A stretch of 64,000 nucleotides of DNA from Candidatus Binatia bacterium (GCA_963664395.2 OY761159.2:3232001-3296000); one strand, 5' to 3'; shown: positions 20,404 through 44,099, counted from the first letter of the stretch. A program made the numbers and translations. The notes: generated by a model from the letters alone, not told the origin.

Positions 20404-20422
20404 CCTATCAAATGATAGAAAA
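20404..20422 (-). promoter_or_regulatory. Palindromic box copy 1 (CCTATCAAATGATAGAAAA); orphan, points toward no intact gene
   Basis: Exact CTATCA-AA-TGATAG core with A-tail, same as copies 2, 4, 5. Confidence 0.7.
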
Positions 20423-20473
20423 GTGACCCCGGCCGGTCCTGCGCATGTTGCCGGGCCGGGGTGAGCAGAGCCG

Positions 20474-23400
20474 CTACTCCACAGCCGTCATCACAAAATT
20501 CTGACTGTTCTGTTGCCACTCCAACAGCACGCTCTGCCCCAGGCGCGGAAAGTCGTCCACCACACATTCTCCCTCGGCCCCCCGTAGAAACTCGTGCCCC
20601 AAGGTCGTCACCCGCACCGTGGCCCGGCCCAACTCCACCGCGTCCACGTAGGCCACCACGGTATGCTCCCCCTCCCCCAACAGGTTCCAGTTGAACAACA
20701 ACCCAAACCCATTGTCCGTATCCCCACACACCGCCAGCGTGTCCACCCGTTCCGTCCCATACGCCGCCACCTGCCGCCCGGCAGTCCCAATCGCCAGCTC
20801 GACCGTGTCGGCGTCACACACCCAGCCCGACAGCACCCGGACCCCACTCTGAAAGGAGTTATGCCCCGGATTCTCCAGAACCCCTGTCAGGGCGCTTGTC
20901 CGGCCCGTGGTAGCCCCGGCCGGGGGACTTCCCCCCGCAATCACGAAGTTCTGACTGTTCTGCTGCCACTCCAGGGTCACGTACTCGCCCAGGGTCGGGA
21001 AGTCTTCGGCCTCGCACGTCCCCGTTACGTTCCGCAGAAACTCCTGTCCCAGGGTCGTCACCATCACCGTCGCCCGACCCAACTCTACGCCATCTACGAG
21101 CGCTACGACTTCATGCTCCCCGTCTCTCAACAGGTTCCAGTTGAACAAGAGACCAAAGCCATTATCCGTATCCCCACACGCCCCGGCCGTATCTAACCGC
21201 TCCGTCCCATACGCCGCCTCCTGCGGCACCCCGTTCAACTCGATCTCCACTCTCTCCGCCTCGCACACCCAGCCCGACAGGACGCCCACCCCACTCTGGA
21301 AGGAATCGGCGCCGGGGTTCCCCAGAGTGCCCCGCACGAAGGTGACGACTATGTCGTACACCCCGGTCGCCCCGCCCTGCCCTTGCACGGCCACCACGAC
21401 CGGGCCGGCCTCGACGCGCGCGCCAAGCCGCTCGGCCGGCGGATTGTTCCCTGTAGGGCCGGAGGCCAAGACTGCGTCGTTCTGCCAGATGGTGCCCCGG
21501 GTCTGTACGCCGCCGGTGGTGTCCACAAAGAGGAGTCCTTGGCCGGGGGCGGTCACGGTAAAGTAATCCATGTCGGCTGTGGGGCAGATGGCCCCCACCG
21601 TCACACTAGCCAGTGCAAGACTGGTGGCCTGCGCAGCGCTGTTGCCGTGGACGTCGTCCTGTGGACAGGCGCCACCGCCGCCGCCACCACCACCGCCACC
21701 ACCACCGCCGCCGACGATGGAAGATGAACTCTGCGGGCGGGGCAGAGTCACTGTCTCTTCCGCCGCCACCATCACTGGCTCTGTTTTGCGCGTCTCCTGG
21801 ACGTCGGTATAGGTGACCCTGACCCGCAGATGTTTGCCGAGGTCGGCGTCCACTGGCGTATAGGTGTCTGTCGTGGTCGAGGTGCAGTCGACCATGATAA
21901 TGTCGCCCGGGGGGAAGGTTGGGAATTGGGACCGCTCCCAGCACCAGTCGTCGGGGGTTGTCGGGGCCGGGTTCACGCCGTCCGGGTCGCTCACCGTCGC
22001 GGTGAGTTCTCTCCCCAACTGGGGCTGATTCGACGACAGACGGACCATGCCGAGGGCATCCTCTATCGTGACAGTCACATCCAGGGTCCCGGTGAATGTC
22101 CCGTCGGAGGCTTGCACGGTCACCTCATACTCTTTGTCCGTGTTGTTGGGGTCCTCATAGTCCGGTGACTGCTGGAAACGCAGCACTCCGTTCGAGATGG
22201 TAAAGGCATCTTTATCCGTCCCTTCCACCGACCACGTCAGCCGGACGTTGGCCGGGTTGCGCGCCGTGTACGTGGCCACCGGACTCCTACCACCCTCTCC
22301 GTACGCGGGGGCGGGCTCTCCCTCCACCTCGGGTGGGTCATCATCGGTGATGGTCACGGTCACCGGCCTCACAGTCGTCGACTGCACCCCTTGGGTGTTC
22401 TCCGCCCGCCCCGTCACGGTCACCTGCTTGTCCGCCTCGTCCTCCGAGTTGTTCTGCGCCGTGAGCGTTGCACTCCCCCTACTCTCCATCTCCCCTGCCA
22501 GAATCGTCAGGCTCGTCCCGCTCAACGTAAAGGCGTCGTCCACCGCCGGATGCACCGGCGTTGCCGACACCTCGACCTCTGTATCCTCGCTCGACGGATG
22601 ATTGAGCGTCGCCATCACTGTCGTGCTGCTATCCACGCCACTCTCCGTGATCGAATCCGCCGACAACTCCAACATCACCGTCGGTGGAGCGTCGTTGTCC
22701 GTGATCGTCACCGTCGTCGGCGTCACCGTCAGCCCCGTAGTACTGCCCCCCACCGTCACGGTCTCGTCCGGCTCATCAATGATGTCATTCACCGGCATCA
22801 GGGTGAAGGTCACCGTCCCGCTCGGCTGATCCGCCGCAATCGTCAGCGTGGAGACGTTCGCCACGGTGAAGTCCGTATCCAGCATGGCCGTGCCAGCCGT
22901 GACCGCGACCGTCACCACGGTGGCGGCCGAGCGGGGCGCGCCATCCAACTCGCTCGTCACGGTCACCGTCCTGCTGCTGGTGTCCTCTGACACGGCCTCC
23001 GGGGTCACGCGCAGGGTCACGGCCGTGGACGGACTCTCGTCGTCGGTCACGGTCACCGCCACGGAGGCCGCGCTCTCCCCTGCGTAATCCCCGCCACTGA
23101 CCGTATGCGTAATCGTCGCGGTCTCGGGCGGGACGTTCTCCACTTGGTCGTTGGTCGTCTCCACCGTCACCGTCTGGACGGCGTCCCAGTCCTTGGCCAT
23201 GAACGTCAGACTGGGCTTGTCCACGCGGATCTCCGTGTCGTCGGACGCCACGGAGATCGTCACCGTGGCGGTCGGCTCGGAGTCCAGCACCACCGTGTAG
23301 GTGCCGGTGCTCCCCTCCCGAATCGACAGCATGGCCTTACTCACCGTCACCCCGCGGGTGTCGTCATCCGTAATGGTCAGGTCCACCGGAGCGAGGCCGG

Positions 23401-26400
23401 TCACCAGGCGGTTGGTCGTCGTGCCACTCACTTGCACGGTCTTATTGGGGGCGTCCACGTCGTTGGGCTGAGCTTTCAGCGTCACCGTCCCACTGCTGAC
23501 CGTCGCCCCCGCTGCGATGGTCAGCGTCCGGTTGCTACTCAGCGTCACGTCGCCCGTCGGGGCTGAGACCGTCACGGTCGTCACGGCGCTCGACGCCGTG
23601 TCCAGCTCTGCCGTGACCATGCTGCTCTCCGTGCCGGCCTCGCTGATGGAGGTATCGGACAGGTACAGCTTGACCACCGGCGCGGCCTGCACCGGTGCCG
23701 TCTCCACCGCCGCACTCTTCCCGGCCCCCTGGCGGTCGGTATAGGTCACGGTGGCCCGCAGATACCGTCCCACGTCGGCCATCATCGGCGTATACTGCGT
23801 GGCGGTGGAGACGGTGATATCGGTCCAGGTGCTCTGGTCGGTGGACCACGCCCACTGCCAGGCGATGTCGATCAGACCGCCGTCCGGGTCACTGAGCGTC
23901 GCCGTCAGTTGCTGGCGTTCCTGCGCCGGGGTCCCCGTCAGGGTCACCATCCCCGCTTCGTCCACGTTGACGATATTGATCATCACGGTGATGCTGTCGT
24001 CCGTCGCCGTGTCGGCTGCGTCCTGGTAGCTCTTGCTGTCCCGGACCGACACGGTGACTGTGTAGCGGGGCTTGGTCTCGTAGTTCAGCGCCGCCTGGGT
24101 CCGCAACTGCCCGGTGGACGTGTGGAGGGTGAAGGACGCGGCGTCGGTCCCGCTCAGACTGTAGATCAGCGCCGTGTCGTCGGGGTCGGTGGCCGAAACG
24201 GGGAGGCCGATAGCGACGCCCGTGGCCGTGTTCTCGGCCACGCTGCGGGTCGTGGTGCTGGTGCCGTCATCGAACGCCGGCTTCTGGTTCGGGGTCGTAG
24301 TCAACGCCAGCTGGGCACTGCGCGTGCCTTCCCCGCCGTCCACGACCGCGGCCACCTGATAGACGTAGGTGGTGCCGCCGCGCACGGTGCGATCGGTGTA
24401 AGCACGTGCGGTGAGGTCCTCGGCAACGGCCGCCACGGTGGAGCCGGTGCGGCGGTAGACGGTGTAGGTCACGGCCGGCGGCGAGGTCCAGGGGCTCGTG
24501 ACCGCAGACCAACTCAGCTCCACGAGACCCCTACTAATCGTCACTACTGTCAGGTCTGGGCCGGCGCGGAGCTGATGGCCGAACTCCTGCCAGTCGTCCG
24601 CCCCGAGCGCTGGGTACTGGCTGGCCGTGCCGAAGTCCCAGGGGGCGTCGTTATTGCCGTCGCCGTCCAGGTCTACGTTCCAGTCGGCATAGATGCCGCC
24701 GGTGATATATCCGGTGGGGGTCTGTAATTGCGTGGTGGTTTTGCCCTCGCCATGATTCCCGGTCATGCGGCCTGACGTGTCTGTGTCCCAGTAGCTGGCG
24801 GTGATCGGGCCCTTGTTCTGCCCGACCAGCCCGCCGACATCGGTGCCGCCTGACACCCCCCCGGCCGCATAGCTGTTTGTGATGGTGTCGTCGTTCAACC
24901 CGACCAGCCCGCCGACAAGGGATTTGCCCGAGACGTACTCGGCGGCGTAGCTGGTGTGAATCGTGCCGTCGTTCAACCCGACCAACCCCCCGACAGATTG
25001 AGTGCCTGACACCCGCCCCGTCGCGTAGCTGATGTGAATCGTGCCGTCGTTCAACCCGACCAGCCCGCCGACATCGAAGCCGCCTGACACGCGTCCAGTG
25101 GCGTAGCTGCCCTGAATCGTGCCGCTGTTCTGTGCCCGATCAGCCCGCCGACATCGAAGCCGCCTGACACCCCCCCGGTCGCATAGATGTTTATGATGGT
25201 GCCGTCGTTCCGCCCGACCAGCCCGCCGACAACATTTTCCCCCGTCACATCGACATCGACCACTCCGACAAAGCGAATGGCACCAGACGAGCCTATGGAG
25301 CCGAACAACCCGACGTTATTAGTGCGTCGGTCAATGAACAGGTTCCGGATGGTGTGGTCGTTGCCCTCAAAGGTCGCGCTGAATGGGTTACTGTTCGTCC
25401 CGATGGGCACCCAGCCAGCGCCGCTATTCCAGTACTCGTCGTCCACGTCAATCTGGCCGTCGCCGTCGGTGTCGAAGTCCAGGTCCGCGGCCAGTTCATA
25501 GCCCACGCACTCCCGGTTCCTCGTGCGGCAGACCACCCGCGTCACATTGGGAAACGCCGCAGCATACGCGGTCGCTCCAGCGGGCGTCGGGATACCGTCG
25601 CCGTTTGGGTCGTGCCCCATCGCATCCAACTGCGCCAGGGTCGCAACTTCAAGCAGCCCGTCAGCGTCCGTGTCGTACAGCGGCTCCGGGGTATTGTTCG
25701 TTACCGCCAGTCCAGAGAAGGCGGCCATCAGGTTGCCAGCCACATCCCGAAGCGGCCGCGTCCCCGGTGTATAGCTCAGCGTCACGGCCTGGTCATGGGC
25801 AACATGGGAGTCCAGCGTCATCGTCACAGTCCGCCCGGACACTACGACGGAGTTGACCGCTACCCTCGTACCATCGGCGGTGACCGTCAACGCGCTCGCC
25901 GCCGGCACTGACAGCTCGTCCAGTGCCTCGTTACACGCCAGCGTCACGGTGTCGCCGTCCACAACCGGAAAGAGCACCGCCGTCGGCGCGACGCCGTCCA
26001 CGGCGTGGCTGCTGGTGGCCTCGATTGCATCATGGTTGAGCCCGGCGTCCCGGTTCGCGGTGTCCTTGATCGTCGTCCCACTGGGCAGCGACAGGCTGTT
26101 CGCGAGCATAGTCACCCCTTCGGGACCTCTCTGGTTGACCGCCACGGTGTAGGTGAAGACCAGCACCTCACTCGCGCTTCGGTCGGCCTGATACACCATC
26201 TCATATGATAGAAATCCGATCGTCAGCGCGATGCTGGGTGTGCCGGTCACAGTGATGGGCTTGGTGAAGACTACCGCGACCGCAATCTCCTCCCCCGCTG
26301 CATATCCCCCCCGGGGGTCTGAGATGAGCGCCACCGTGCTGACGCTCGGCGCAGCCGTGGTGGTAGGGTCGTTGTCGGTCAGCGTCACCGTGGCGGTAGC

Positions 26401-27612
26401 CTGACTGCCGACCGCCACCCCTGCGGGCAGCGGTGCGCCAAAGCCCAAGATCACCGTCTCTTCGTCCTCTTGGCGGCTGTCCTGATTCGCGCTGAAGGTG
26501 AAGGTTCGTGAGGTCTGGTTCTCCCCAAAGGTGATGCTCGCCGGGAGGGTATAGTCGCCGGGCCAGGCGCCGTCCGTACTTGTCGCGGTAAGCGGAATGG
26601 GCAGGTCGAGCGTACGCCCCGGCGCGGCGTCCAGCCGCACCGTCACGGGTACCGTTCCGCCTTCGGTCACCGCGTATGCCCCCGCATCGAAAGAGACCTT
26701 CACGGCCCGGCCCTGCCGGAATTCGGCCACGGTCGTGCGGGTTTCGTTGAGTCTCAGCGCGGCGTTGGCCGGCCCATCCACCGCATTCGTGGTCTGGGTG
26801 CCAGCCACACCCATGGGATCGCCGTTGTTCCTTGGGTAGGAATTGGACGGGTTTGAAAAATAGAGCACCCTCTCACAATCGAAGCGAGGATTATTTTGGC
26901 TACACTGAGTTTTGTACGCCATAATCGTGGTCCAGCGCTTGGAAGTCGCCGCGCCCTCCTCGAACGCCTTCTGGTTCACATAGCCGTAGGCGTAAGGATA
27001 GTTTGGGGGACACAGAGGATTGTCAGTATCGTGCCGACATTCTACATACCGGTCGTGGCGAAGCCCCATGAGGTGGCCCAGTTCATGAGCGAAGATACCC
27101 GCGTCGGCTATGGAAACGCCAAAGGCAAGGCTAGCGAATTTCGTTGATCGCGCGCCCATGAAATTCGCGAGTCCGCCGTCCCGCGAGCGGAGCAGAATGA
27201 CAGCGTCCGCCCACATCCGGTCACGGATGGTGTGGACTTCGTCCATATAGCCGTCCGACTTACTCTGAAGACGGTCGAGATCGACATACATCGCGTCAAT
27301 GGCTGTAAAAGCCGACCCTGTTGACATCGACTCGGTGTATCCCACCACCTCCTCCACGGCCACCAGATTAATGGTCTGGCTCACACCGCTGTCTGCGTAG
27401 GCCATATTGGTGGCGACGACCAGCTCATCGATCTTGGTCTTGATCTGCGCGGTCCCGCCATGGGCGGTTTTGGCCTGAGGCGTGTAAAAAACGGCGACAT
27501 CAATCACCGACTCCGACTGCGCGTGTGCAGTGCCAGCCAGGAGGGGCAGCAGCAACAGCGCCAGGAGCAGCACGCACTTGATGTTGGGGGAAGAAAGAGT
27601 CCAGGGCGGCAT
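20474..27612 (-). CDS. Giant exported Zn-metalloprotease/adhesin (M12/M72-like protease, Calx-beta-like, SwmB-like, GLUG, FN3, cadherin, poly-Gly, PPC-like, 2x conserved C-terminal domain); frameshifted at ~25131
   Basis: Signal peptide; HELGHLMGLRHD; GGLVG GLUG repeats continue across ORFs 25051-27612 and 20474-25090 once a CA duplication is removed; LNYE/PDYE cadherin motifs. Confidence 0.85.
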
Positions 27613-28244
27613 CAGTGCTGGTGGTCAGTCTCGGAATAGAGCGCATCCGCCCCGCAGTCGAGCGGGGGCTCTTCCACCTCGCTAATGGCATACAGGCCGT
27701 CGCCCACCGAGCGGATCTCGTAGAGTTCGCCCAGCAGCCGCACCGTGCCCGCCACGGCCTCCCCATTGACGACCAGCGTCATCGTCCCGAGCGGCTCTTC
27801 AACCAGATGGCCCGCTACGGAATAGCCGCCCGAAAACGTGGGGGCCGTCCGCTCCACCAGGCCCGTGACGACCACATCGTCGAACAGATTGAAGGTCAGC
27901 GTCGTACCCGGTGCGGGTGCCGAACTGGATTTGTCCGTGCGCGTGGACGTGCCTTTGGTGTGCGCCGTCTGGCCGGGAGGTCCGGCGACGGCGGCTTGGA
28001 CTTGCGTCAGGTCCATGGTCACCATCCGGCTGCGCACCGTCAGATCGTCGGACGCTAGTGCCGGCGGGGGTGGCGCATTGACGGGCGTAAAGAGGTCGGC
28101 CGCCTGCCCCTCGACCGGGGGGGCGCCCAGTACCGCCAGCAGCACCCCCATGCCGGCGGCGAGGCAGCGGGGGGAGCACACGCGCCAGCCCCGGCCTCTC
28201 CTGGCGGTGTCATCAAAAGAAACTCTCATCGCCCTAGCCTTCAT
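27612..28244 (-). CDS. Exported metalloprotease-prodomain-like protein
   Basis: Own signal peptide; LTFNLFDD..GTVR..YEIR..PLDCG resembles reprolysin-type propeptides; TGATG overlap with the protease gene. Confidence 0.7.
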   Translation of the reverse strand: MKARAMRVSFDDTARRGRGWRVCSPRCLAAGMGVLLAVLGAPPVEGQAADLFTPVNAPPPPALASDDLTVRSRMVTMDLTQVQAAVAGPPGQTAHTKGTSTRTDKSSSAPAPGTTLTFNLFDDVVVTGLVERTAPTFSGGYSVAGHLVEEPLGTMTLVVNGEAVAGTVRLLGELYEIRSVGDGLYAISEVEEPPLDCGADALYSETDHQH

Positions 28245-28428
28245 CTCTGGTCTGGTCTGACAGAACCGCCGGGGATAAACCCTGTCCGCAGGGCGGAGCG
28301 CGGGCCGCTCCTACGATCTCAGCGGGCTGTCGGGTCCAAAATCCTCATTGTTTTGTTGCCTCTCCAACGTGGTTGCCACCGCCGCCTCAGGGAGGGACCT
28401 CTGTACTACAATGACGCGGTCCCCGTCA

Positions 28429-28447
28429 CCTATCAAATGATAGAAAA
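28429..28447 (-). promoter_or_regulatory. Palindromic box copy 2
   Basis: CCTATCAAATGATAGAAAA ~185 bp upstream of ATG 28244. Confidence 0.75.
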
Positions 28448-28457
28448 ATGATTCGGT

Positions 28458-28521
28458 CCGGTGGTCCGGCGAGCGCGGCGACCGACAACACTAGTCGTAC
28501 CGAGCCCACCTGCCCGGCGAG
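28458..28521 (+). repeat. ~63-bp repeat, second copy at 44110-44172 (both distal to a box)
   Basis: CCGGTGGTCCGGCGAG(C/T)GCGGC..CCGA(C/T)AACAC..CGTACC..CCACCTGCC. Confidence 0.8.
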
Positions 28522-28679
28522 GCGGTGTGGTTACGGCGGCCCAAGCCAGCGGAGGACGGGCGACGGCACGGACGGGAGTTAAGGGGGCAAAGAGCAGGCC
28601 GGGAGGGAAGCCGAGGGCGCCGTCAGGGGCAGGCGGATACGAAGGCTGCTGGGCAGAGGCCGTTAGTGCGGTTTACGAT

Positions 28680-28900
28680 AAGATGCAACCCTGGCCGAGT
28701 TGCGCGCCGCCGTGGGCGTGCCGGTCCGTCTCTCCCCGGTCTGGCGGGCCGTACACCGCTTAGGGCTGACCGTAAAAAAGTCCTGCACGCTGCGGAACAA
28801 GACCGGCCTGATGGCGGAGCGGCCCGGCAGCGCTGGCGCGCCCAAGCGGCCCACCTCAATGCGCACAGCCTCGTCTTCCTGGATGAGACAGCTGTGCGCA
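28680..28900 (+). mobile_element. IS630-family transposase remnant
   Basis: VWRAVHRLGLTVKK, then shifted frame KKVLHAAEQDRPD..LVFLDET. Confidence 0.75.
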
Positions 28901-29069
28901 TGTGGATACAGCACGGCGTGGGGCACCCGACTCTGTGTCACTTCTCCCCGTAGACGCCGGGAAAAGGAGGCGAACCGATGATCCAGGCGCGTATCGAATG
29001 CGTGCAGCCGCTCCTCGATGCGCTGCTCAACGGCCGCAACTGTGTGCTCCAAGCGGTCCTTGATGAGGG

Positions 29070-29183
29070 GCAGGCGCGCGTGCACAGGACGGTCTGCCAG
29101 GAGACGATCTCTTGCCGATACCGATAAGCCACCGGCCATGAATGTGCTCTGCCTTTGCGGGCATGAGAGGGGGGGCAAGTCCC
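29070..29183 (+). repeat. 114-bp conserved 3' flank, second copy at 31288-31401
   Basis: Near-identical sequence immediately downstream of the stops of two family genes. Confidence 0.9.
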
Positions 29184-31266: not shown

Positions 31267-31287
31267 ATGATTCGGTCCGGGGCATGC

Positions 31288-34400: not shown

Positions 34401-35681
34401 GCTTGTCTCCTGCGACGACACCCGCACCGTCAGGCTATCGTCGCATCCCACGGCGTAGTGGAACGTGTCGGCATTGAACGCCGGGTACATCTCCCGGTCG
34501 GAAGTCGTGGTGACGTGGAGTACACTGAGTTTGAGCGGCGGCGCATCGTCATCCGCAATGATGACAGTCTGTTGTGTGCCGACCGCAGTTCCGTCAAGAG
34601 TTGCGGCGATGACGATGGTCTCAGCGTTCTCGTCGTGAGTATCGTTCACCGCAGTGATGATGCCCGTGACCTCGTGCCCGCCCGCCGGAAGGGTGAGAGA
34701 GAAGGGCTTTGAAACCGGACGGCCATAAGCACCGGTGAACGTGTAGTCGCTCCCAACCGTGGCACTCCCGCCGAGGGTGATGTCGATCACCTGCGCGGAC
34801 TGGAAGGTGACGCCATTCGTAACGCTGATTGTGACGGTTGCCGTGCCTGTATCCGCCTCTGCGATGCTGGGAGAATCAACACTCAGACTGAACACAGCCG
34901 TGTCGTTATCTTCCACCGTCACCGTGGCCTCACCTGCGTTGGCGTCAACCGTATAAGCGGAGTCGTCCGTGATGGTTGCCGTCACTTCGCTGGAGTCCTC
35001 GACGACGGTATCGTCGTCCGTCGCGACCGACAGGGTCGTGGTGCTGTGATTTACCGCGAAGGTCACCGTCGTATCCGACGGGCTGGTCAGTATGGAGCCC
35101 GTCTCTTGCACGCTGACGGCGACGAGCAGCTCGGCCGCCGTCGTCCCGGTTCGTACCAGGGTGAAGGGGGCGTCCGTTCCCTCCACCAGGCTTGTCTGTG
35201 CCGAAATCGAGACTTTGGGTAATGACTGTGCCGCCGCTTTATCCGGCGCCCCGAGAATAGCGACGGGCAAAAAGCAGTACCACCACCAGTCGGGAATGAG
35301 AGACCGAAACCGCCCAGGCGCACGACAAGCATGTGATCGAAGCGGCTGACAGAATTGGGGGAATATGCTGTTAAGGGAAATTCGGTTCGGAGAGACCGTC
35401 ACCATTAGCCGCAGGGCAGCCCAGCCATTGTGCAGCAAAAACAGCCCGCGGAGAAGCTTCCACAACCGACCTGCCCTTTCCCCAAAATGTATGCAGCAAG
35501 TATATGTTGAGGAGACGGCGTGGCGCATTAGGTGTACTCCAGAGGTTGGGGAGAGCGTCATACCTTGCGAGTGCTGTACCTCCTCAGGGGATGCTTCCCG
35601 TGCCGTCCTCGCTGATCGTCCTGCATCTGTCACCCAGAAGCGACGGTCTGTGCCGCCGCCGCCCCGGCCCACAAGACGCAC
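31402..35681 (-). CDS. Exported arylsulfotransferase (ASST)-domain protein with Calx-beta-like domains, poly-Gly, PPC-like and 2x conserved C-terminal domain; frameshifted at ~32605
   Basis: HDF, WNSWDH, DYAHINSLD, IIASFR..IWRLG, GQHAAR, LLFDNG ASST motifs; DVHGNS PPC-like start lies in a shifted frame right after the Gly linker; true start uncertain. Confidence 0.8.
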
Positions 35682-35817
35682 AGGGCCACAGTCATCACTC
35701 TCAGTCGCTTCATGACGTTCGCTCCTCTCTTCTCCCCTCTGTTGAGTTGTTCAGTAGGGGGGCCACCGGCACCTGGATGAAGGCCTCTAATCTAATGCAA
35801 TGCCGTGCTCCCGGTCA

Positions 35818-35836
35818 CCTATCAAATGATAGAAAA
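35818..35836 (-). promoter_or_regulatory. Palindromic box copy 4
   Basis: CCTATCAAATGATAGAAAA upstream of the ASST gene. Confidence 0.75.
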
Positions 35837-35855
35837 ATAACCCTGTCCGGGGACC

Positions 35856-35963
35856 ATGGACGCGGCCCTCGCCCACACCAATCCAAACAAGGTAGAAGCG
35901 GCCTATGCGCGCTCAGACCTGTTTGCACGCCGGCGGACACTCATGGAGCAGTGGGCGGCGTAC
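35856..35963 (+). pseudogene. C-terminal remnant of a P4-like tyrosine integrase
   Basis: Translates MDAALAHTNPNKVEAAYARSDLFARRRTLMEQWAAY (box II LAH..Y and C-terminal helix). Confidence 0.8.
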
Positions 35964-36280
35964 CGGGTAGTGTCCTGTACCGAGAAGAACGAAGATTGTA
36001 GGCCGGACGCGGCCGCCCAGTAGTCCATTGCCACTGAGTCGGACCCTCTCTGTTAAACAGGTCGTTCTCTTGATTATCGAGGTCGCGATCTGCCCTATCT
36101 TGCTCTGATCGCTCTCTTCGTCATTGGTAAAGGGTGTCTCGTAGAGAATACAATTGGAAGCGATTTTGGTCCTCAAGAGGAGAGTCTCTCACCCTCTTTG
36201 ACCCTGCGCGGTTCCTCTCCGTTCCGCCTCTCGCCCGCGCTTGCCGGGGCAGCCTGTCCCGCCCCTCCTAGTGGGGTAGG

Positions 36281-36337
36281 GCCGGGCAGGGGGACGTGGG
36301 GGGGGCTGGTCCTGGCGGTGTGACAACGCTCATCTGA
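36281..36337 (+). pseudogene. 3' remnant of a paralog of the LuxR-type regulator
   Basis: Degenerate AGQGDV..LVLAV/TTLI* versus SGKVDLVRLVLSVATFV* of 42775-43911; followed by a box at similar spacing. Confidence 0.6.
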
Positions 36338-36354
36338 CCCCCGGCCGGTGGGAC

Positions 36355-36373
36355 TTTTCTATCATTTGATAGG
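36355..36373 (+). promoter_or_regulatory. Palindromic box copy 5 (inverted: TTTTCTATCATTTGATAGG)
   Basis: ~155 bp upstream of the + strand gene at 36529; orientation flips with the gene. Confidence 0.78.
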
Positions 36374-36528
36374 TGGCAGGGACTACGGAATAGGTTAGGG
36401 ATTCTTCTCTAGGGGTCGGTGACCGCCAAAACCCACACCGACCGCCTGGCCGCTACCCGACAGTTCGGCGGACACTGGGCAAGGGCTCAGAACGTTGAGA
36501 GCCAGCGAGCAATTTCAAACCGAGGCTT

Positions 36529-39500
36529 ATGCGTCTGTTGCGCTCATTACTACCGCGAACCGCAAATATGCTCAGGACAGTTTGCTTGTCCCGACGAGTG
36601 TACTCGCTGGTTTTCGTCCTTGGGTGTCTCACTATGCTGAGTGTCCATGGTGGTCCGGTTTTTGCCGCCTACAACAATCCGGCCACCGATTGGATGCGGG
36701 ACGGCAAATACGGACTTCACGTCAAATATCTCAACTGGATTCGCAGAAACGAAACAACAATTGAGGAGTTCAATCAGTGGGTGAATGCGTTTGATGTCAA
36801 TGCCTTTGCAGAAGACGTAGAGCTGACTGGCGCAAGCTGGGTCATCTGGGGCTTGGGGCGGACGTGGTTCAATTCACCGAATGCACCGCTGGAAAGCACG
36901 GTCGGCGATTTCACCTCCGATCGTGACTTGCCGCTCGAAATCTACGACGCACTGCACGAACGCGGCATACGATTGATGCTGTATGCCGCCGGCGATAAAG
37001 CGAGAACTGGGGAGAATAGCGCAGGAAAAGTCGCCTTGGGATGGGACGGAATCAATGACAATTATACCCGCACTTTTGTTAATAATTGGGCGGATGCGCT
37101 GCAAGTCTGGTCGGATCGCTATGGAACAAAGGTGTCGGGGTGGTGGTTCGATCATAGCTACCCTGATTATGCTGTTTCGGATACCGCCTGTGGGACTTCC
37201 AATCCGGAATTGGCGATCTATAGAACTCACCTCCTTTCCGGCAACCCAGATGACGGCATAGTGGGTATTAACCATGGTAACAGGATGGGGGGCGAGCTCT
37301 GCCATAGCCCCGAAGATGACTATAGGGCTGGGCACATTAGGGAAGATTCCTTAGAAGTTGCATCTTCTCGATGGTGGAATGGACTGCAATGGCACTACAT
37401 GTTTCCGATTGGCACTAGCGGTTGGGGTTCCCCGTATGTCCGATGGGATACACAGGACCAGATCGATTACGTCATCGAAAACAACAGGCACGAAGGTGTG
37501 AACACCTTCAGCGTGTTTGTCTATACGATGCCGGGGGAGTCGGCTGAGGGTGTCGTAAAGGTGCCGGGGCACCTCAGCAATGCACAACTCCGGCAACTGG
37601 CAGCGCTCCGGGATGCTTCGCTAGGGTTTGTAGACAATACGTCGAGCGACATTTCCTTCAATGGTACCTGGGCGAAGCAAGACGACGGCATGGACTTCCG
37701 TGGATCGACGAGCTGGTCGGCGGTGGCGGACAACTATGCCGAGGTGGCTTTTACCGGAACCGGTGTGGAGGTGGTCGTCAGAAAGGGGCCTAACGGCGGC
37801 CTGGTCAACGTGGTGGTGGATGGCGCCGTGGTGGTGGATGATTTCGACACGTATTCGAGTACAACCGAATATAAGCAGACCATCTACGACAATCAGACTC
37901 TCAGTTCGGGGTCCCATACAATCCGCCTGGTGGCGACCGGCGAGAAAAACGCCAGCGCGACAGCAGCCGACGCCATGTTGGATTACTTTGCGGTCACCAA
38001 GGCGGATACGACGGCCCCGAGAGTATTGTCAATCACGAGCGACGCGACGCACCCGGCGAAAGACTCCTTCACGGTAACGATCGACTTCCTGGAGGATGTC
38101 ACGGGGCTCACGGCCGGAGAGATAGTGGTCACCAACGGCACAGGCGCGAACCTCACGGGCACGGGCGCGAGCTACACGCTCGACATTGAGCCGATTGCCA
38201 ACCTCGCAGGCGAGGTGACGGTGCGGGTTCCAGCCGATGCAGCGGAGGACGAAGGGAACAACGGCAACCTTGAGAGGAGCGAAACGTTCGCGGTGGACGC
38301 TCAGGCGCCGGCGTTCCAGAACGCGGCGGTGGACGGAGCCAGGCTGACGCTGGCTTACAATGAGGAGCTGGACCGGTTTTCGGTGCCGCCGACGAATGCC
38401 TTCACGGTGACGGGGAGCGCTCAGGCGCAGACGGTTTCCCAAGTCGTGGTCGGGGGCACGGTGGTAGAGCTGACCCTGAATCCGGGGGTCGAGCAGGGGG
38501 AAGCGGGGATCCGGGTAAACTATACGCAGGGGATGAATCCGATCCGGGATGTACCGGGCAATCAGGCAGAGGGACTGAGCCAGGTATCGGTGACCACCGA
38601 CAACCTGTCTCCGCTCCCACTCCTCCCGCTGTACACGGTCTCTTCGCCCGACGGCAGCCTGACCGCGACGGTCGCGGCCACCAGCGGTAATCTGAGCTAT
38701 ACGGTCAGCCGTGACGGGACCACGCTCATTGCCGATTCGCCGCTCTCGATTCGGGATGCCGCCGCGCACACAGTCACCGGGAATGCGACCACGAGTCACG
38801 ATAGTACCTGGGAGCCGACCTGGGGCCAGTTCAGCAGGATCCGAGATCATCACAATCGCCTGACGCTAAACCTGGATGTCGGCGGCCTATTGTTCGATCT
38901 GATCTTTCAGGTCTACGACGACGGGCTCGGCTTCCGTTTCGTGGCGGACGAACAAGCCTCGCTGTCGGGAAAGATCCTGAGTTACAAGGTGAGGTACAAC
39001 ATGGATGGAAGCTACTGGGCATACTGGCCCATGGGAGAAAGCTCGCCAGAAGGGCCACACCCCATGGATGCCCTGCCGAGTAATCCCCGCAGGTCGGTGG
39101 TGGTGGTCTATGCGGCGGGCAACGACGAGTATTTTGCATTGCTGGAGTCGGACCTGTTTTCCGCCGACGCATTCGAAGCAATTAAATTTTGGAGGGTGAC
39201 CGGAGAGGCGGCGTTGAAGACGAACCACAAATCGCAGACCGTGCCGGCGGGGGATTTTGTCTCGCCCTGGCGGGTCGTTCTGGTGGGGGATACGCCAGGG
39301 GATCTGCTGGAGAGCACCGTGGCGCTCAATCTGGCCGCACCGCTGGCGCTCGACGATGCCTCGTGGGTGAAGCCGGGTAAGGGCCTCTCCAACTGGCGGA
39401 CCCTGGGCTACCAGACCGACGACGGCCTCTTCACCTATCGTCTGAATACGGCAACCCTGAAGCGCTTGATCGACTTCGCAGCCGACAATGGTATTGAGTA

Positions 39501-42108
39501 CGTTGACGTTGACGACGATTGGTTCACGAGGATCAACAACGGCCAGCTTGTCAGCCAGGCATCTGATTTTGACATCGAGGAGGTCATCGCCCATGCTGAC
39601 ACCAAAGGCGTTGCCATCACCATCTATGTAGACCAGAGGCCGGCTGGCCGGATCACCAACACGACGGACAAGCAGCTCTATCAGCTCTTCAGCAATTTGG
39701 GCGGCTCGGCTATTAAGTACGGCTTCAGGAGCAACGACGCACCGTTCACCCGCGCCGCGCTCCGAGGCACCGCGGCAAAACAGATGCTGATCAATTTCCA
39801 CGACGATCCGACCCCCATGACTGGGGCGCGCCGGACAATGCCAAACGCCATCACCCGGCAGACAGGGTGGGGCCAACAGGACAACCGCACGGCCTTCGCA
39901 CCAACGGATTTCCTGGAAATGGCAATGATCAATGCCTTGCTGGGACCCTTCGATCAAGTCAACGGCATCTACGACCTCAACGAAATGCCGGATCGGGACA
40001 ATGGCTCCGACAATCTCATCAATTCCACCGTCGCCGGCGAAAACGCGCGGGTTCTGATCATGTTCAGCGGCATGATCAAGCTGCCGGATGTGCCGGAGGA
40101 ATACGCCAAGAAGGCCGACATGTTCGAATTCCTGCGGGAAATGCCGGTGACCTGGGACGAGACCCGCATCCTGCACAGCTCCCTGCCCCACTACATCACC
40201 ACGGCCCGACGCAGCGGCAAGGCGTGGTTTGTGTGCTCGGCCACGAACGAAAGCGTGAAAACCCTGAACAGCACCCTGGATTTCCTCGAGGCCGGCGTGA
40301 CCTACAATGTGACCTACTACGAAGACGATCATGATGGGACGCCGCCGACCCACTACATCGACAACCGCGAAACGTACCAAGTCCGTACCGGGATGGTGAC
40401 CAGCGCCGATACGGTGTCCGCCGTCATGGTCGCAGGAGGCGGCCACTGTATGTGGATTCGCACGCAGCCGGTGCCGCCACAGCCCGGCCACCCGGTGGAC
40501 GGGGTCCGGCCGGTGCTCCAGGGTGCGACGGTGGGTGGGGCCACACTGACGCTGACCTACAATGAGGCGCTCGACGAGGACTCGACGCCTGCGGCGAACG
40601 ATTTCACGGTGGATGTCGCGAGCGCCGAGAGGCTGCTAACCCAGGTTCTGGTGAGCGGCCGCACGGTCACGCTGACGCTGATATCGGAGGTAACGCCGGG
40701 CGAGACGGTCAAGGTGAGCTATACCGCGGGGACGCGCCCGATCCGGGACGCGGCGGGCAACGCGGCCGTAGATCTGACCGAATACACGGTGGGCACGCCG
40801 CCTCCCGTAGTCATCACGCCCCCACGCCCGCCCACCACGGGTGGTGGCGGTGGTGGCGGCGGTGGCGGCGGCGGTGGTGGTGGTGGTGGTGGCGGCGGCG
40901 GCGGTGGCGCCTGTACACAGGACGACGTACACGGTAACAGCCCTGCACAAGCCACTGACTTGGCCCTGTCTGTTGCGACCGCCGGTGCTGTCTGTCCAGC
41001 CGCGGACGTGGATTATTTTACCGTGACCGCCCCCGGCCAAGGACTCCTCTTTGTGGACACTCCCGGTGGAGGACAGACTCGCGGGACCATCTGGCAGAAC
41101 GACGCGGTCTTGGCGGCTGGCTCCACGGGGAGTGGTCAGCAGCCCGACCGGCTGGGCGCCCGCGTTGCGGCGGGGCCGGTCGTGGTGGCCGTGCAAGGCC
41201 AAGGCGGGGCAACCGGTGCCTACGCCCTGGTTGTCAGCTTCGTGCGGGGCTACCTGGAGAACCCTGGCCCGGATTCCTTCCAGGGTGGCGTGGGGGTACT
41301 GTCGGGTTGGGTGTGTGCCGCGAACCAAGTCGAGATCGCGATTGGGAACCTCCCGCCGCAAGTGGCGGCGTATGGGACCGAGCGGGTGGACACGGCCGGG
41401 ATGTGCGGGGATACGGACAACGGCTTTGGGCTGTTGTTCAACTGGAATCTGTTGGGGGATGGGGAGCATGAGGTGGTCGCCTTGGTCGATGGGGTGGAGT
41501 TAGGCCGGGCGACGGTGACCGTGACGACGTTGGGCGAAGAGTTTCTGCGGGGCGCCGCAGGGACTTGTGAGGCGGAGGACTTCCCGACGCTCGGCGAGAC
41601 GGTGACCCTCGTGTGGCAGCAGAATAGTCAGAACTTTGTCATGGCACGGGGGAGTGCCCCGGCCAAGGCTATCACGAGCAGACCGAGGGGGCTGACGGGG
41701 TATCTGGGGAATCCAGGCCACAATTCCTTTCAGAGCGGCATTGGCGTCCTCTCGGGCTGGGTGTGTGAGGCGAATCAGGTCGAGCTCGCAATTGGGGACC
41801 TCCCGCCGCAAGTGGCGGCGTATGGGACCGAGCGGCGGGACACGCGAGAGGTGTGTGGGGATACGGACAATGGCTTTGGGTTATTGTTCAACTGGAATCT
41901 ATTAGGGGACGGAGAACATGTCGTGGTCGCCTTTGTGGATGGGGTGGAACTGGGGCGAGCCACGGTGCAGGTGACAACCTTGGGGCAGGAATTCCTGCGG
42001 GGAGCTGAGGGCGAGTGTGTCGCGGACGACTTTCCCCGCCTGGGGCAGCAGGTGTGGCTGGCGTGGCAGCAGAATAGCCAGAACTTCGTGATTGTGGACG
42101 TGGAGTAG
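36529..42108 (+). CDS. Exported multidomain glycosidase: alpha-L-fucosidase-like TIM barrel + CBM-like + Ig-like + SwmB-like + GH97 + SwmB-like + poly-Gly + PPC-like + 2x conserved C-terminal domain
   Basis: RDLPLEIYDALHERGIRLMLY..RYGTKVSGWWFD; GH97 motifs SPWRVV, SWVKPGK, IDFAADNG, INFHD, PVTWDETR, ARRSGKAWFV. Confidence 0.85.
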   Translation: MRLLRSLLPRTANMLRTVCLSRRVYSLVFVLGCLTMLSVHGGPVFAAYNNPATDWMRDGKYGLHVKYLNWIRRNETTIEEFNQWVNAFDVNAFAEDVELTGASWVIWGLGRTWFNSPNAPLESTVGDFTSDRDLPLEIYDALHERGIRLMLYAAGDKARTGENSAGKVALGWDGINDNYTRTFVNNWADALQVWSDRYGTKVSGWWFDHSYPDYAVSDTACGTSNPELAIYRTHLLSGNPDDGIVGINHGNRMGGELCHSPEDDYRAGHIREDSLEVASSRWWNGLQWHYMFPIGTSGWGSPYVRWDTQDQIDYVIENNRHEGVNTFSVFVYTMPGESAEGVVKVPGHLSNAQLRQLAALRDASLGFVDNTSSDISFNGTWAKQDDGMDFRGSTSWSAVADNYAEVAFTGTGVEVVVRKGPNGGLVNVVVDGAVVVDDFDTYSSTTEYKQTIYDNQTLSSGSHTIRLVATGEKNASATAADAMLDYFAVTKADTTAPRVLSITSDATHPAKDSFTVTIDFLEDVTGLTAGEIVVTNGTGANLTGTGASYTLDIEPIANLAGEVTVRVPADAAEDEGNNGNLERSETFAVDAQAPAFQNAAVDGARLTLAYNEELDRFSVPPTNAFTVTGSAQAQTVSQVVVGGTVVELTLNPGVEQGEAGIRVNYTQGMNPIRDVPGNQAEGLSQVSVTTDNLSPLPLLPLYTVSSPDGSLTATVAATSGNLSYTVSRDGTTLIADSPLSIRDAAAHTVTGNATTSHDSTWEPTWGQFSRIRDHHNRLTLNLDVGGLLFDLIFQVYDDGLGFRFVADEQASLSGKILSYKVRYNMDGSYWAYWPMGESSPEGPHPMDALPSNPRRSVVVVYAAGNDEYFALLESDLFSADAFEAIKFWRVTGEAALKTNHKSQTVPAGDFVSPWRVVLVGDTPGDLLESTVALNLAAPLALDDASWVKPGKGLSNWRTLGYQTDDGLFTYRLNTATLKRLIDFAADNGIEYVDVDDDWFTRINNGQLVSQASDFDIEEVIAHADTKGVAITIYVDQRPAGRITNTTDKQLYQLFSNLGGSAIKYGFRSNDAPFTRAALRGTAAKQMLINFHDDPTPMTGARRTMPNAITRQTGWGQQDNRTAFAPTDFLEMAMINALLGPFDQVNGIYDLNEMPDRDNGSDNLINSTVAGENARVLIMFSGMIKLPDVPEEYAKKADMFEFLREMPVTWDETRILHSSLPHYITTARRSGKAWFVCSATNESVKTLNSTLDFLEAGVTYNVTYYEDDHDGTPPTHYIDNRETYQVRTGMVTSADTVSAVMVAGGGHCMWIRTQPVPPQPGHPVDGVRPVLQGATVGGATLTLTYNEALDEDSTPAANDFTVDVASAERLLTQVLVSGRTVTLTLISEVTPGETVKVSYTAGTRPIRDAAGNAAVDLTEYTVGTPPPVVITPPRPPTTGGGGGGGGGGGGGGGGGGGGGGGACTQDDVHGNSPAQATDLALSVATAGAVCPAADVDYFTVTAPGQGLLFVDTPGGGQTRGTIWQNDAVLAAGSTGSGQQPDRLGARVAAGPVVVAVQGQGGATGAYALVVSFVRGYLENPGPDSFQGGVGVLSGWVCAANQVEIAIGNLPPQVAAYGTERVDTAGMCGDTDNGFGLLFNWNLLGDGEHEVVALVDGVELGRATVTVTTLGEEFLRGAAGTCEAEDFPTLGETVTLVWQQNSQNFVMARGSAPAKAITSRPRGLTGYLGNPGHNSFQSGIGVLSGWVCEANQVELAIGDLPPQVAAYGTERRDTREVCGDTDNGFGLLFNWNLLGDGEHVVVAFVDGVELGRATVQVTTLGQEFLRGAEGECVADDFPRLGQQVWLAWQQNSQNFVIVDVE

Positions 42109-42129
42109 AGGACCCGCTCACTCCTCTTT

Positions 42130-42603
42130 TTATAGAGTCAGTATGAAAAGAACGGGAAGATTGCCTGCTGCCAGTGGGCGGCGTATTTGACCGAGGAACG
42201 CGGCACGGTCGTGCCGCTGGTGCGACGAGGGTAAGCTCCGAGCGACCAAACACGGGTGGTCATGGCCAGGGTTTTTATGCACCGGGTGATGGGCACTCTG
42301 CAAAAAAATGGGACTCTTCCGCTTTGGACTTATGGGCCGTCTTGCCACACCGTGCCCACCGTATCGACCCGTCCCGTGGTCTCGACCACCAGCGTCCCGG
42401 CTGGGGCGGCGGGGACGGTCGGGCCACCCCAGGACCGGCAAGGCACTAGCGCAGAGCAGAAAACGCTCCCACCTGCCGAGAACCGAGCCGAGGGTCTGTC
42501 CGAATGTGCGGATGGACTGCCGCATGTCACCAGGCGCTACATAATCTGAACGGGCAGGGGCGGGTCGCCCGGCTGCCATACACCACAGGCGTGTCAAAAA
42601 CAT
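42130..42603 (-). pseudogene. Decayed family member (PPC-like fragment)
   Basis: APAGTLVVETTGRVDTVGTVWQDG matches the PPC-like domain of 31402-32601; frames broken; box copy 6 upstream. Confidence 0.55.
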
Positions 42604-42738
42604 GCACGGCTCCTCCTCTTCCAGCCACCTCTCCGTCCTCTGCCGAGCTGTTGGTGTGGCGGCACGGCGTCGGTGTGGATGTTGCGGTCACCGACCCCCA
42701 GGGAAGGCCCCTTATAATTCAATGCCGTAGCCCGGCCC

Positions 42739-42757
42739 CCTATCAAATGGTAGAAAA
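42739..42757 (-). promoter_or_regulatory. Palindromic box copy 6 (CCTATCAAATGGTAGAAAA)
   Basis: One mismatch; lies between the luxR stop and the decayed gene; TATAAG 22 nt downstream on the - strand. Confidence 0.72.
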
Positions 42758-42774
42758 ATAACCCCGCCCTGGGG

Positions 42775-43911
42775 TCAGACGAACGTGGCGACCGACAGCA
42801 CCAGCCGCACCAAGTCCACCTTCCCGGAGAGACCCTGCTTGTGGTAGATTTGATGCAGGTACCACCGGACCGAGCGTTCCGTATACTCCAGCGCCACAGC
42901 AATCTCGCGTACGGTCTGGCCTTCCGCCACCCAGGCCGCGATCTGGCTCTCCACCGGTGTCAGCCCCAGGGTCACGGCCACTAGGGCAGGGTCGATGTGG
43001 GACACCAGCCCCCGCTCGACCAGCAGCACCTGGGCAGCCACGCGCCCCGCCCCAAAGTCCATCTGCCGGACCCCCACCGGTTTGACGTGCACCACGAACG
43101 GTGGCAGCGCGGACGCGCGGTGGAGCCGCATTGACCCACTGACGGCGGGCGCACTGGAGGTCGGCAGTGCGGCGGCGACCAGCCGCTCCAGGCAGGCATG
43201 GTCAGCCGGCACGCGGGCGGCCAGCACGCCGCCCCGGTCCATCAGCCCATCGCCGTTTTGCAGGATGGCATGGGCACGGTCATTGGCCTCCACGATCTGC
43301 CTACGCCGGTCCAAGTAGATGACCCCGATCCGAGAGATGTCGAGCAGGGCGGTCATGGACGCGCCCAGTGCTTCGGCTTTGGCCAGCGCCTGCCGGATGC
43401 GGACAAATTGCCGGATATGGGGCAGTAGCCCTTTGACCAGCGTGAGTTGCGAGGACTCCCAACCACCTGGGGTGACCGGGTCAAAGGGGTGCCAGGCAAT
43501 ATGGGAGTCGTCAGACCCGTCCAGGCGGACATTCAAGCCATCCTGGCAATGCCAACGGGGAAACGCCTCGTTGTAGGTCGGCGAGGTCTTCAACTCTTGG
43601 GGGATGTACAGGGCGGGGGTGTGCACCACGCGGCTGTCGGGCAGTTGCCGGAAACGCGGTATGCCTTCGTTGATAGGGTGGTAGACTTCAAGGTACTCGC
43701 GCTCCCAGTCCTCACGGCGCTCCCCCCGGTAGTAGGAGCCGAGGAAGAAGACCCGGCTATCGTCCTGTGAGCCTTCGCGAATTATGAGGGAGTTGCCCAC
43801 CATGCCGCAGGCATCATCAATCAGCGCCGAGGTGGCCGGCCATAAGGTATCGTCAAGCATGGCGTCGTATAACGACGCCAGGATCCGCTCAAACGCGTCT
43901 TGGTCACTCAT
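42775..43911 (-). CDS. LuxR-type HTH transcriptional regulator with N-terminal sensor/PAS-like region
   Basis: C-terminal LTPVESQIAAWVAEGQTVREIA..SVRWYLHQIYHKQG; PAS-like GVIYLD...IVEANDRA. Confidence 0.9.
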   Translation of the reverse strand: MSDQDAFERILASLYDAMLDDTLWPATSALIDDACGMVGNSLIIREGSQDDSRVFFLGSYYRGERREDWEREYLEVYHPINEGIPRFRQLPDSRVVHTPALYIPQELKTSPTYNEAFPRWHCQDGLNVRLDGSDDSHIAWHPFDPVTPGGWESSQLTLVKGLLPHIRQFVRIRQALAKAEALGASMTALLDISRIGVIYLDRRRQIVEANDRAHAILQNGDGLMDRGGVLAARVPADHACLERLVAAALPTSSAPAVSGSMRLHRASALPPFVVHVKPVGVRQMDFGAGRVAAQVLLVERGLVSHIDPALVAVTLGLTPVESQIAAWVAEGQTVREIAVALEYTERSVRWYLHQIYHKQGLSGKVDLVRLVLSVATFV

Positions 43912-44077
43912 GCCGGTGCGTCCTTGTCCGGTGTTTCCAGTGAGGCGCAGTCATGGAGTCCGGACAGGAAAAGAAGAGCTGTGCTCGAACGGAGCGCCCC
44001 CATATGCCTTCAGCGCTTCACAAGAGAAGTTCATATACATGCTGTTCGCATATGCGTACCAAACCCTGCGGGCCCGG

Positions 44078-44099
44078 TCACCTATCAAATGATAGGTGA
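44078..44099. promoter_or_regulatory. Palindromic box copy 7, extended palindrome TCACCTATCA-AA-TGATAGGTGA
   Basis: Perfect 10-bp arms, ~170 bp upstream of the regulator ATG. Confidence 0.8.

Follow-up and report, generated by a model that had tools for sequence, protein, structure and literature searches.

A palindrome beside secreted-protein genes as the probable operator of a three-domain LuxR-type regulator in Candidatus Binatia

The element considered here is a palindrome, CTATCA-N2-TGATAG (the box), that occurs in seven copies (c1 to c7) in a 64,000-nt window of the genome of Candidatus Binatia bacterium (GCA_963664395.2 OY761159.2:3232001-3296000), which belongs to a lineage that, to our knowledge, has no cultured members. 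The copies lie among genes for large secreted proteins and beside the gene of a LuxR-type regulator (42775-43911, minus strand). The palindrome is proposed to be the operator of an autoregulated, ligand-dependent regulon governed by this regulator as an activator. We regard that statement as a whole, activation included, as probable, and the narrower statement that the box is the binding site of the regulator, whatever the sign of control, as highly probable; both were deduced from sequence comparison. The source genome (G000 below) is an assembly of 5.04 Mb in 14 contigs, in which the window, meaning the whole 64,000-nt stretch, is C1:3232001-3296000. Positions given without a contig are those of the window.

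A scan of the window for CTATCANNTGATAG gave six exact matches, at 20405, 28430, 31249, 35819, 36359, and 44082, compared with a mean of 0.01 matches in shuffled sequences with preserved dinucleotides, where none of 100 shuffles reached six. The copy at 42740 is CTATCAAATGGTAG and has one mismatch; the seven copies reported in an earlier note on this sequence therefore comprise six exact sites and one variant. The same note had seen no further copies in the window, and this was borne out, as the remaining matches at up to two mismatches (26198, 30152, and 63746) each carry two and lack the flanks. In transcriptional orientation six copies read TTTTCTAYCATYTGATAGG, and the copy at 36359 is inverted for a divergent gene, as had been stated earlier. 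The copy ahead of the regulator gene (44078-44099) reads TCACCTATCA-TT-TGATAGGTGA and is indeed a 22-bp palindrome with perfect 10-bp arms containing ACCT-N10-AGGT. The similarity from copy to copy exceeds the palindrome, taking in about 25 nt on its upstream side and about 60-100 nt on its downstream side, and the repeats that contain the box span about 170 nt.

Scattering of the motif over the genome, which the earlier note had set against its own proposal, was not what a genome-wide scan found. There were nine exact sites: the six of the window and three more, C1:2804581, 2816317, and 2817660, which lie in a second cluster (C1:2.80-2.82 Mb). The second cluster also holds a 1-mismatch site, 2812982, that bears the same variant as 42740, giving 11 sites in all. 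When a 34-nt weight matrix was built from these 11 sites, they scored 37.5-58.0 and the next best position in the genome scored 19.0, and it was from this gap that the motif was deduced not to be scattered. The box is exclusive to the two clusters, and each contains a regulator gene. The paralogue encoded in the second cluster has 378 aa, is 88% identical to the window regulator, and shows no substitution in residues 236-361, which cover the recognition helix of the helix-turn-helix (HTH) domain. Boxes in that cluster precede the paralogue gene and three large genes with fn3, PPC, Calx-beta, CARDB, DUF11, and SWM domains. With its identical recognition helix, the paralogue would read the same boxes there.

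Boxes and regulator genes were also found together in other species. Exact boxes were present in seven of the 24 other genomes of the genus, and in six of these seven (G004, G005, G012, G016, G018, and G023) they flank the closest homologue of the regulator or its pseudogene, the homologue in G012 being a split pseudogene. In the remaining genome, G015, there is a single site that has neither a T-run nor a -35-like flank, and the regulator had no match there. Homologues more distant than these, with 48-65% identity, were found in metagenome-assembled genomes labelled Vicinamibacterales/Acidobacteriota, Alpha- and Gammaproteobacteria, Entotheonella/Tectimicrobiota, Nitrospinota, Nitrospira, and Spirochaetia.

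A further connection between box and protein came from the recognition helix, which is EYTERSVRWYLHQIYHK in the window regulator. The species-genome collection gave 144 relatives of the regulator, 80 of which were kept, and 96 distinct full-length regulators were sorted by recognition helix; the 400 nt upstream and the 160 nt downstream of each were searched for three box types at up to one mismatch. Regulators with the class A helix (S[VI]RW[YH]L[HY]Q, n=10) had the palindrome described above (box A) in 9 of 10 cases and box B or box C in none. For the class B helix (VYW.LN, n=3) the associated box was CTATAA-N2-TTATAG (box B; 3/3), and for the class C helix (SIHWHL, n=14) it was CCGTAA-N2-TTACGG (box C; 9/14). 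Cross-hits among the three classes were zero, and among the 69 regulators with other helices box A was found in one and box C in three. Single further helix-box pairs had the boxes CTAATCA-TT-TGATTAG, CTACCA-TT-TGGTAG, and CTGTCA-TT-TGACAG. Between classes A and B, an Arg in the helix is replaced by Tyr and the C at half-site position 5 by A, a covariation that would fit an Arg-guanine contact. That three pairs of helix and box show no cross-hits would be difficult to account for if the HTH did not read the box. Autoregulation, claimed in the earlier note, is kept as plausible, as the box lies upstream of 9 of the 10 class A genes.

The same association would be expected if the box belonged to a different, unlinked transcription factor and both box and regulator simply rode on duplicated island modules. 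The evidence linking regulator and box is association throughout, and the modules were duplicated as blocks that include the 3' end of luxR. We nevertheless consider an unlinked factor very unlikely: each of the three helix classes has its own box with no cross-hits, the linkage persists in species whose flanks keep no more than about 40-50% column identity, and an inverted 7-2-7 or 6-2-6 layout is what would be expected of GerE/NarL-type dimers.

As a separate observation on class B, its box (TTTTTCTATAATTTTATAGG) occurs exactly three times in G000 (C1:106169, 107590, and 115760), beside genes of the family domain described further below. All three copies are at two class B regulator genes, 106432-107568 and 114602-115738.

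The position of the box relative to promoter-like sequence is fixed. Sites with at most one mismatch in G000 and in the loci of relatives numbered 46; removal of three 1-mismatch hits in G000 that lack the flanks and the T-run left 43, and removal of the flankless G015 site as well gave a set of 42, from G000 and 12 further loci of relatives (6 to 8 other genomes). The pattern TTG-N1-4-TA-hexamer was found in 32 of the 43 oriented sites, the hexamer starting 23 (2 sites), 24 (16 sites), or 25 (14 sites) nt past the box end, compared with 2.2% of 20,000 random 22-nt genome windows. The earlier note had placed a TA-starting hexamer 22-23 nt downstream; its start was measured at 24-25 nt past the box end. 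In 27 of the 42 sites, the 6 nt directly past the box (GTGACC, GGGACA, and similar) match TTGACA at four or more positions, and a T-run (at least 4 in 5) stands ahead of the box in 36 of the 42. Over the 42 sites, column identity reached at least 90% for the core and 70-90% for the T-run and GGTGAC, against about 40-50% further out, and the 31 sites from other genomes alone gave the same picture. If the TA-hexamer is the -10 element, the box would occupy about -49 to -36, with its centre near -42.5. From the box end to the likely start codon, distances of 105 (c4), 136 (c6), 156 (c5), 170 (c7), 185 (c2), and 187 or 220 nt (c3) were measured, and the range of 135-190 bp given earlier is accordingly replaced by 105-220 nt.

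On these grounds, the following mechanism is proposed. In its fullest form the site is CCTATCA-TT-TGATAGG, a 7-2-7 arrangement, and the other sites are 6-2-6. A dimer of the regulator would sit on the box, abutting a weak -35-like hexamer of the GTGACC type that is followed, after 17-18 nt, by the TA-hexamer, which would put the box centre near -42.5. On sensing a ligand, the dimer would recruit RNA polymerase in a class II manner and switch on the regulator's own gene (c7) together with five neighbouring units (c2 to c6) for large secreted multidomain proteins and enzymes.

The same regulator could instead repress from the box, either plainly or in the manner of EsaR/ExpR-type repressors that a ligand releases, and keep polymerase from the -35 and UP region until a signal displaces it. 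The box touches the -35-like hexamer, the autoregulatory promoters of relatives have a second partial box 21 bp upstream, which is an arrangement also known at repressed promoters, and the computed evidence is compatible with either sign. Repression is judged unlikely because the -35-like hexamers are weak (mostly 4/6 at best) with no consensus promoter, as is typical of activator-dependent promoters; because class II activators classically bind with their centre near -42.5; and because repressor sites in the LuxR family usually overlap -10 or +1.

The partial box just mentioned has the form TTTCCTATCAT.TG or TTTTCTATTATTTGA and lies about 21 bp further upstream of the boxes at regulator genes in relatives (L130:11751, L133:5921, L134:6236, L137:7043, and L052:1273). 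The same promoters share a motif, ..ATACG.AACAGCATGTATATGAAC.., just past the -10-like hexamer; c7 retains this motif and is missing the upstream half-box. The partial box and the downstream motif hint at extra control of the regulator's own promoter.

A further feature of the boxed modules is a leader of about 85 nt, C-rich (..GGTCGGTGACCGCAACATCCACACCGAC..GCCGTGCCGCCACACC..CTCGGCAGAGGA; 42634-42721 in the window), which is conserved between species before different genes and has counterparts in loci L132, L133, L134, L137, L052, L054, L055, and L025. RNAalifold on 16 leaders gave -0.17 kcal/mol and 3 pairs, with no shared structure, and Rfam at gathering thresholds found no RNA element in 19500-45500. 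The T-run was also considered as a terminator tail and rejected: a terminator-like hairpin was found at c6 only, one of the six boxes in 27500-45000, and the 13 such hairpins in that interval compare with 12.1 in shuffles, so that the run is not generally the tail of a terminator. It may instead be A/T-rich upstream promoter DNA.

Conservation of the leader, together with repeats of about 170 nt and the decay of several boxed genes, could be taken to mean that the box has no function of its own and is a passenger in a promoter-leader module spread by local duplication. This is scarcely credible in view of the core being the best-kept part across species (at least 90% versus 40-50% for the flanks) and changing in step with the recognition helix.

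The regulator to which the box is assigned has 378 aa, and three parts were distinguished in an AlphaFold2 model (22-sequence alignment, mean pLDDT 81) that was compared with about 48,000 chains, with Foldseek in agreement: a LasR/GAF-like ligand-binding fold (1-178), a PAS domain (184-300), and a GerE/NarL-type HTH (313-376). Predicted residues 10-176 matched the ligand-binding domain of LasR with Z 14.3 and rmsd 2.7 over 155 of 163 residues at 12% identity. Further receptors of acyl-homoserine lactones (AHL) followed for residues 1-178 (CepR2, Z 14.2; CviR, 12.6; TraR, 11.8), as did GAF domains (Z 10-11.6). The PAS fold of residues 184-300 gave Z 9-9.8. For the HTH, the closest structures were the C-terminal domain of DosR with DNA (Z 10.8), NarL with DNA (10.5), and GerE (9.4), at rmsd 1.3-2.3 over 63-64 residues, and residues 184-377 aligned to VqmA-DPO with Z 9.6 and rmsd 8.7 over 170 residues. 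Among the solved chains listed, none has a LasR-like fold, then PAS, then HTH.

The sole Pfam match of the regulator was GerE (PF00196; residues 317-370, 36.9 bits versus a cut-off of 23.5), with no Response_reg match. Autoind_bind (PF03472) matched neither the regulator nor anything else in the genome, and the control matched in E. coli. LuxI-type PF00765 gave no match in G000, nor in any of 14 control genomes. NCBIfam gave only sub-threshold matches at the HTH level, and a sequence search of the PDB gave HTH-only matches with E of 0.03 or above. In the protein atlas, the sensor part resembled clusters, unnamed and of the "CsgD/HTH regulator" type, in which 11-16% of members carry PAS_8 or GAF; this serves as a lead only. 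From the predicted folds, the protein would work like a LuxR-type one-component sensor-regulator, although one that lacks two defining features of the AHL-receptor family.

The regulator and all seven boxes lie on one island of 23,879 bp (20293-44171). Four relatives, G005, G006, G007, and G012, have no island at this site, and their counterparts of the window flanks (to 20292 and from 44172) are about 0.8 kb apart. Positions 19957-20382 encode the first ~116 codons of a PF00144 serine hydrolase whose gene is split (rest at 44172-44480), with about 0.8 kb lost, and the orthologues in the same four genomes are open over 456-484 aa. From the intact orthologues and the closely spaced flanks it was deduced that 20293-44171 is an insertion. 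Regulator and boxes thus arrived jointly on one 23.9-kb insertion, which we count in favour of the proposed operator. The right junction lies inside a luxR 3' remnant, 76 nt upstream of c7, with 5 nt of microhomology; the left junction lies 112 nt beyond c1, the copy which, as the earlier note had remarked, has no gene downstream.

In the alternative offered in the earlier note, the boxes would be site-specific recombination sites that delimit or shuffle gene cassettes. This finds some support in mosaic flanks, as c3 and C1:2816317 share the downstream flank and not the upstream one, and likewise c6 and C1:2812982, and in the orphan c1 near the island edge. Strain comparison was made with contigs of four coded runs over 26000-45500, interpreted where covered. 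Three strain joints end 20-28 nt from the c4 core, and in runs X5 and X7 position 29242 is joined to 31475, so that gene 3 and c3 are missing (29243-31474). Yet none of 30 joint endpoints fell in a core (15 joints listed, with 55 further not shown), and many joints are paralogous modules that cross-align (e.g., 42466 to 35767 and 35852 to 42791). Gene 3 was lost by a joint within two 171-nt direct repeats (29070-29240 and 31288-31458; 93% identity) that lie where family-domain genes end, and not by one at a box. Neither island junction is in a box, and the homology of the modules begins 20-25 nt upstream of the core rather than inside it. The 40 window ORFs scanned, among them some but not all of the small or broken ones, yielded no Pfam match to an integrase, recombinase, or transposase. 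Recombination sites also leave no place for the fixed spacing to the promoter hexamers. This alternative, with no island or strain junction seen inside a core and no recombinase domain in the scanned ORFs, was set aside as extremely improbable. Homologous recombination between repeated modules and domain-coding ends clearly reshuffles the locus.

Several observations weigh against an operator of a working regulon. A standard sigma-70 scan found no promoter at any box, and the -10-like hexamers are poor (TACAGA, TAGCAG, TACGCA, and TAGGGA); the placement near -42.5 therefore depends on predicted hexamers. A look-up of sequencing runs recorded as RNA listed none that contains 35500-44300. The class A regulator L094 has no box within 400 nt upstream, and 5 of the 14 class C regulators lack theirs, one class C row (L046) being mis-coordinated. 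The compared sequences are relatives and paralogues, whose counts are non-independent and overstate the independence of the evidence; the best loci per genome were read, which left out some paralogues in box-negative genomes, such as G006:2287208 and G011:C4:962263. The similarity among the 11 genome sites may largely reflect recent duplication. Finally, three of the seven window boxes precede nothing intact (c1 is an orphan, c4 precedes a broken frame, and c6 a decayed remnant), from which it follows that a box need not mark a working gene.

The individual boxes, all on the minus strand except c5, are described in the order of the window. Box c1 (20405-20418) has an exact core and keeps the T-run and GCGACG, with the conserved spacer and -10 region lost; its homology to the other modules stops 9 nt past the box, with no TTG..TA hexamer and no gene after it. 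Box c2 (28430-28443; -35-like GTGACG at 28424-28429, TACAGA at 28400-28405) heads a minus-strand transcription unit from 28244 to 20474, presumed to be an operon from its abutting or overlapping ORFs. Its three ORFs encode a protein without family match (27612-28244), a reprolysin-like metalloprotease with Ig-like repeats (25051-27612), and a 1538-aa protein (20474-25090) in which cadherin and GLUG domains are combined with a PPC-like part and, at the C terminus, with the family domain in tandem. Box c3 (31249-31262; GGGACA at 31243-31248, TAGCAG at 31219-31224) has the spacer variant GA/TC, and its leader, ahead of gene 3, still contains the end of a family domain, 41 codons with their stop. 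The product of gene 3 itself (29184-31028, minus strand) begins with what resembles a signal peptide (MFLSILFGFMFLLAPYAEA), matches cadherin weakly, and carries a single family domain at its C terminus.

Box c4 (35819-35832; GTGACC at 35813-35818, TAGATT at 35789-35794) precedes a minus-strand gene (31402-35713) for an arylsulfotransferase with cadherin-like and tandem family domains, the frame of which is broken at least twice. A good signal peptide (35632-35713) meets a stop after 27 codons, and ORFs 32292-35681 and 31402-32601 overlap in different frames at 32292-32601; the gene is either decaying, as a pseudogene, or affected by a long-read assembly error. The flipped box c5 (36359-36372, plus strand; GTGGCA at 36373-36378) has as its sole in-register TA-hexamer a weak TAGGGA (36396-36401) with no TTG before it, and is followed by a plus-strand gene (36529-42108) for a 1859-aa protein with GH97, Ig-like, and SWM repeats and a tandem C-terminal family domain. 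Box c6 (42740-42753; GGGGCC at 42734-42739, TATAAG at 42711-42716) carries its mismatch in a CTACCA half-site and lies directly past the regulator's stop codon. In the minus-strand region after it (42130-42603), a 157-aa ORF appears to be spurious, and a different frame retains the PPC-like part of a family gene as a remnant broken by stops. Box c7 (44078-44099, core 44082-44095; GTGACC at 44076-44081, TACGCA at 44053-44058) precedes the regulator gene. Upstream of c7 is a luxR-type 3'-end remnant on the minus strand (44100-44176, ..LRQVDVVRRVLSVAALAGPP, no stop codon), whose outer end is the right junction of the island, and a second such remnant lies upstream of c2 (28444-28525, minus strand, ..LAGQVGSVRLVLSVAALAGPP). 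The luxR 3' ends before boxes are explained by tandem regulator genes like those present in relatives.

The family domain is a unit of about 150 aa (ENPG..SFQSG.GV.SGWVC ... CGDTDNGFGLLFNWNLLGDGEH ... WQQNSQNFVI) at the C terminus of many large secreted proteins. As a rule it is present in tandem and follows a PPC-like part and a poly-Gly linker. In the window it was found at 20474-21400, 31402-32601, 41247-42108, 29296-29590, and 45414-45950, and tblastn gave 137 hits at 71 loci in the genome. It has no Pfam or NCBIfam match. Its resemblance in the protein atlas to unnamed clusters, with Big_7 on 11-12% of members, has low recognition value and is a lead only. The unit may be a sorting or anchoring module. 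All eight regulator loci in G000, one of them a pseudogene, lie within 7.1 kb of a family-domain locus and six within 1 kb, compared with 5.4% of random positions within 1 kb. A box A lies within 7 kb of only 9 of the 71 family-domain loci, and the boxed genes of relatives vary: an ankyrin-repeat protein followed by an FGE-sulfatase gene, a reprolysin, TetR regulators, an SNF2/NOV_C helicase, a CarboxypepD_reg giant, and proteins without family. The claim that the boxes stand upstream of family genes therefore holds for several genes of the window and does not extend to the whole family; the regulon would be small, local, and variable.

Three other features of the window were noted. An IS630-like transposase remnant, suspected by eye between gene 3 and c2, was rejected, as Pfam gave no confirmation in three ORFs. 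Just outside the right edge of the island is a gene for a Uma2-family putative endonuclease (44359-44985) with a weak PDC-S03 match (E 6e-6); apart from weak PDC-S03 matches of this gene, no defence-system model matched the regulator or its neighbours. ORFs with NurA, a product of no family, a calcineurin-like SbcD-type phosphoesterase, and an SbcC/Rad50-like ATPase (4620-11820) look like a DNA-end-processing gene set unrelated to the boxes.

Class II activation by LuxR-type proteins from about -42.5 is known from LuxR and the lux box of Vibrio fischeri and from TraR, LasR, and RhlR, and the lux box is ACCT-N12-AGGT, 20 bp in length. The present system resembles these in the GerE-type HTH, the AHL-receptor-like predicted N-terminal fold, the palindrome by a putative weak -35, with a predicted centre near -42.5, and the box before the regulator's own gene. 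It differs in that AHL receptors are two-domain proteins of about 240-250 aa, whereas this regulator has 378 aa with PAS (184-300) between sensor and HTH; in the lack of an Autoind_bind sequence match, with 12-14% identity in the ligand-binding domain; and in a core of 14-16 bp (6-2-6 or 7-2-7) rather than 18-20 bp. Of the lux-box analogy drawn in the earlier note, the palindrome near a predicted -42.5 stands; the sequence likeness is loose, since ACCT-N10-AGGT is 18 bp, and the site is closer to a NarL-type 7-2-7.

Other known systems match in part. LuxR solos that respond to non-AHL or host compounds (OryR/XccR and PluR/PauR) have a LuxR-type ligand-binding fold with no linked synthase and control adjacent genes, as is predicted here, and several copies are present per genome, as with the eight loci of G000; solos are two-domain proteins that match Autoind_bind, and the present family shares neither trait. 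With NarL, GerE, and DosR it shares the HTH fold and, at c7 and in front of the regulator genes of relatives, a site made of two inverted heptamers 2 bp apart, but it has no receiver domain and no partner kinase, its input being a ligand-binding-type fold and PAS in a one-component protein. In VqmA (Vibrio cholerae) and the PimM type of PAS-LuxR regulator (Streptomyces), PAS directly precedes the LuxR-type HTH and the operator is palindromic, as here; the 180-residue LasR/GAF-like domain in front is extra, and box sequence and length differ. Literature searches on Binatota LuxR, on LuxR and eukaryotic-like proteins of sponge symbionts, and on LuxR-PAS-GerE with 7-2-7 sites found no published description among the papers listed, and PMC9999580 has no occurrence of eukaryotic-like, cadherin, ankyrin, LuxR, transcriptional regulator, or fibronectin. 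The mechanism, a LuxR-type activator with a palindrome near -42.5, is textbook; the sensor protein family that would run it here is, as far as these searches show, unstudied.

If the proposed operator is correct, it provides a concrete regulatory circuit in Candidatus Binatia, with a predicted operator, regulator, and target set, and the three natural helix-box pairs constitute a small specificity code for GerE-type HTH domains. A regulator family beside an expanded secreted-protein family (71 loci) could explain how part of that repertoire is switched. Tentatively, and with considerable doubt, we hypothesize that three-domain LuxR-type paralogues act as private switches, each reading its own 6-2-6 palindrome and controlling its own movable island of secreted proteins, spread by transfer and serving a shared sensing of partners or surfaces. 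The island proteins bear adhesin-like or eukaryote-like domains (cadherin, fn3, Ig, and ankyrin), and the regulator family is found in uncultured bacteria under at least eight phylum- or class-level labels. Of these findings, the pairing of helix with box and the tie to secreted-protein islands merit experiment. If true, the private switches could be a shared means for these bacteria to sense a partner organism or a surface and to display matching surface proteins.

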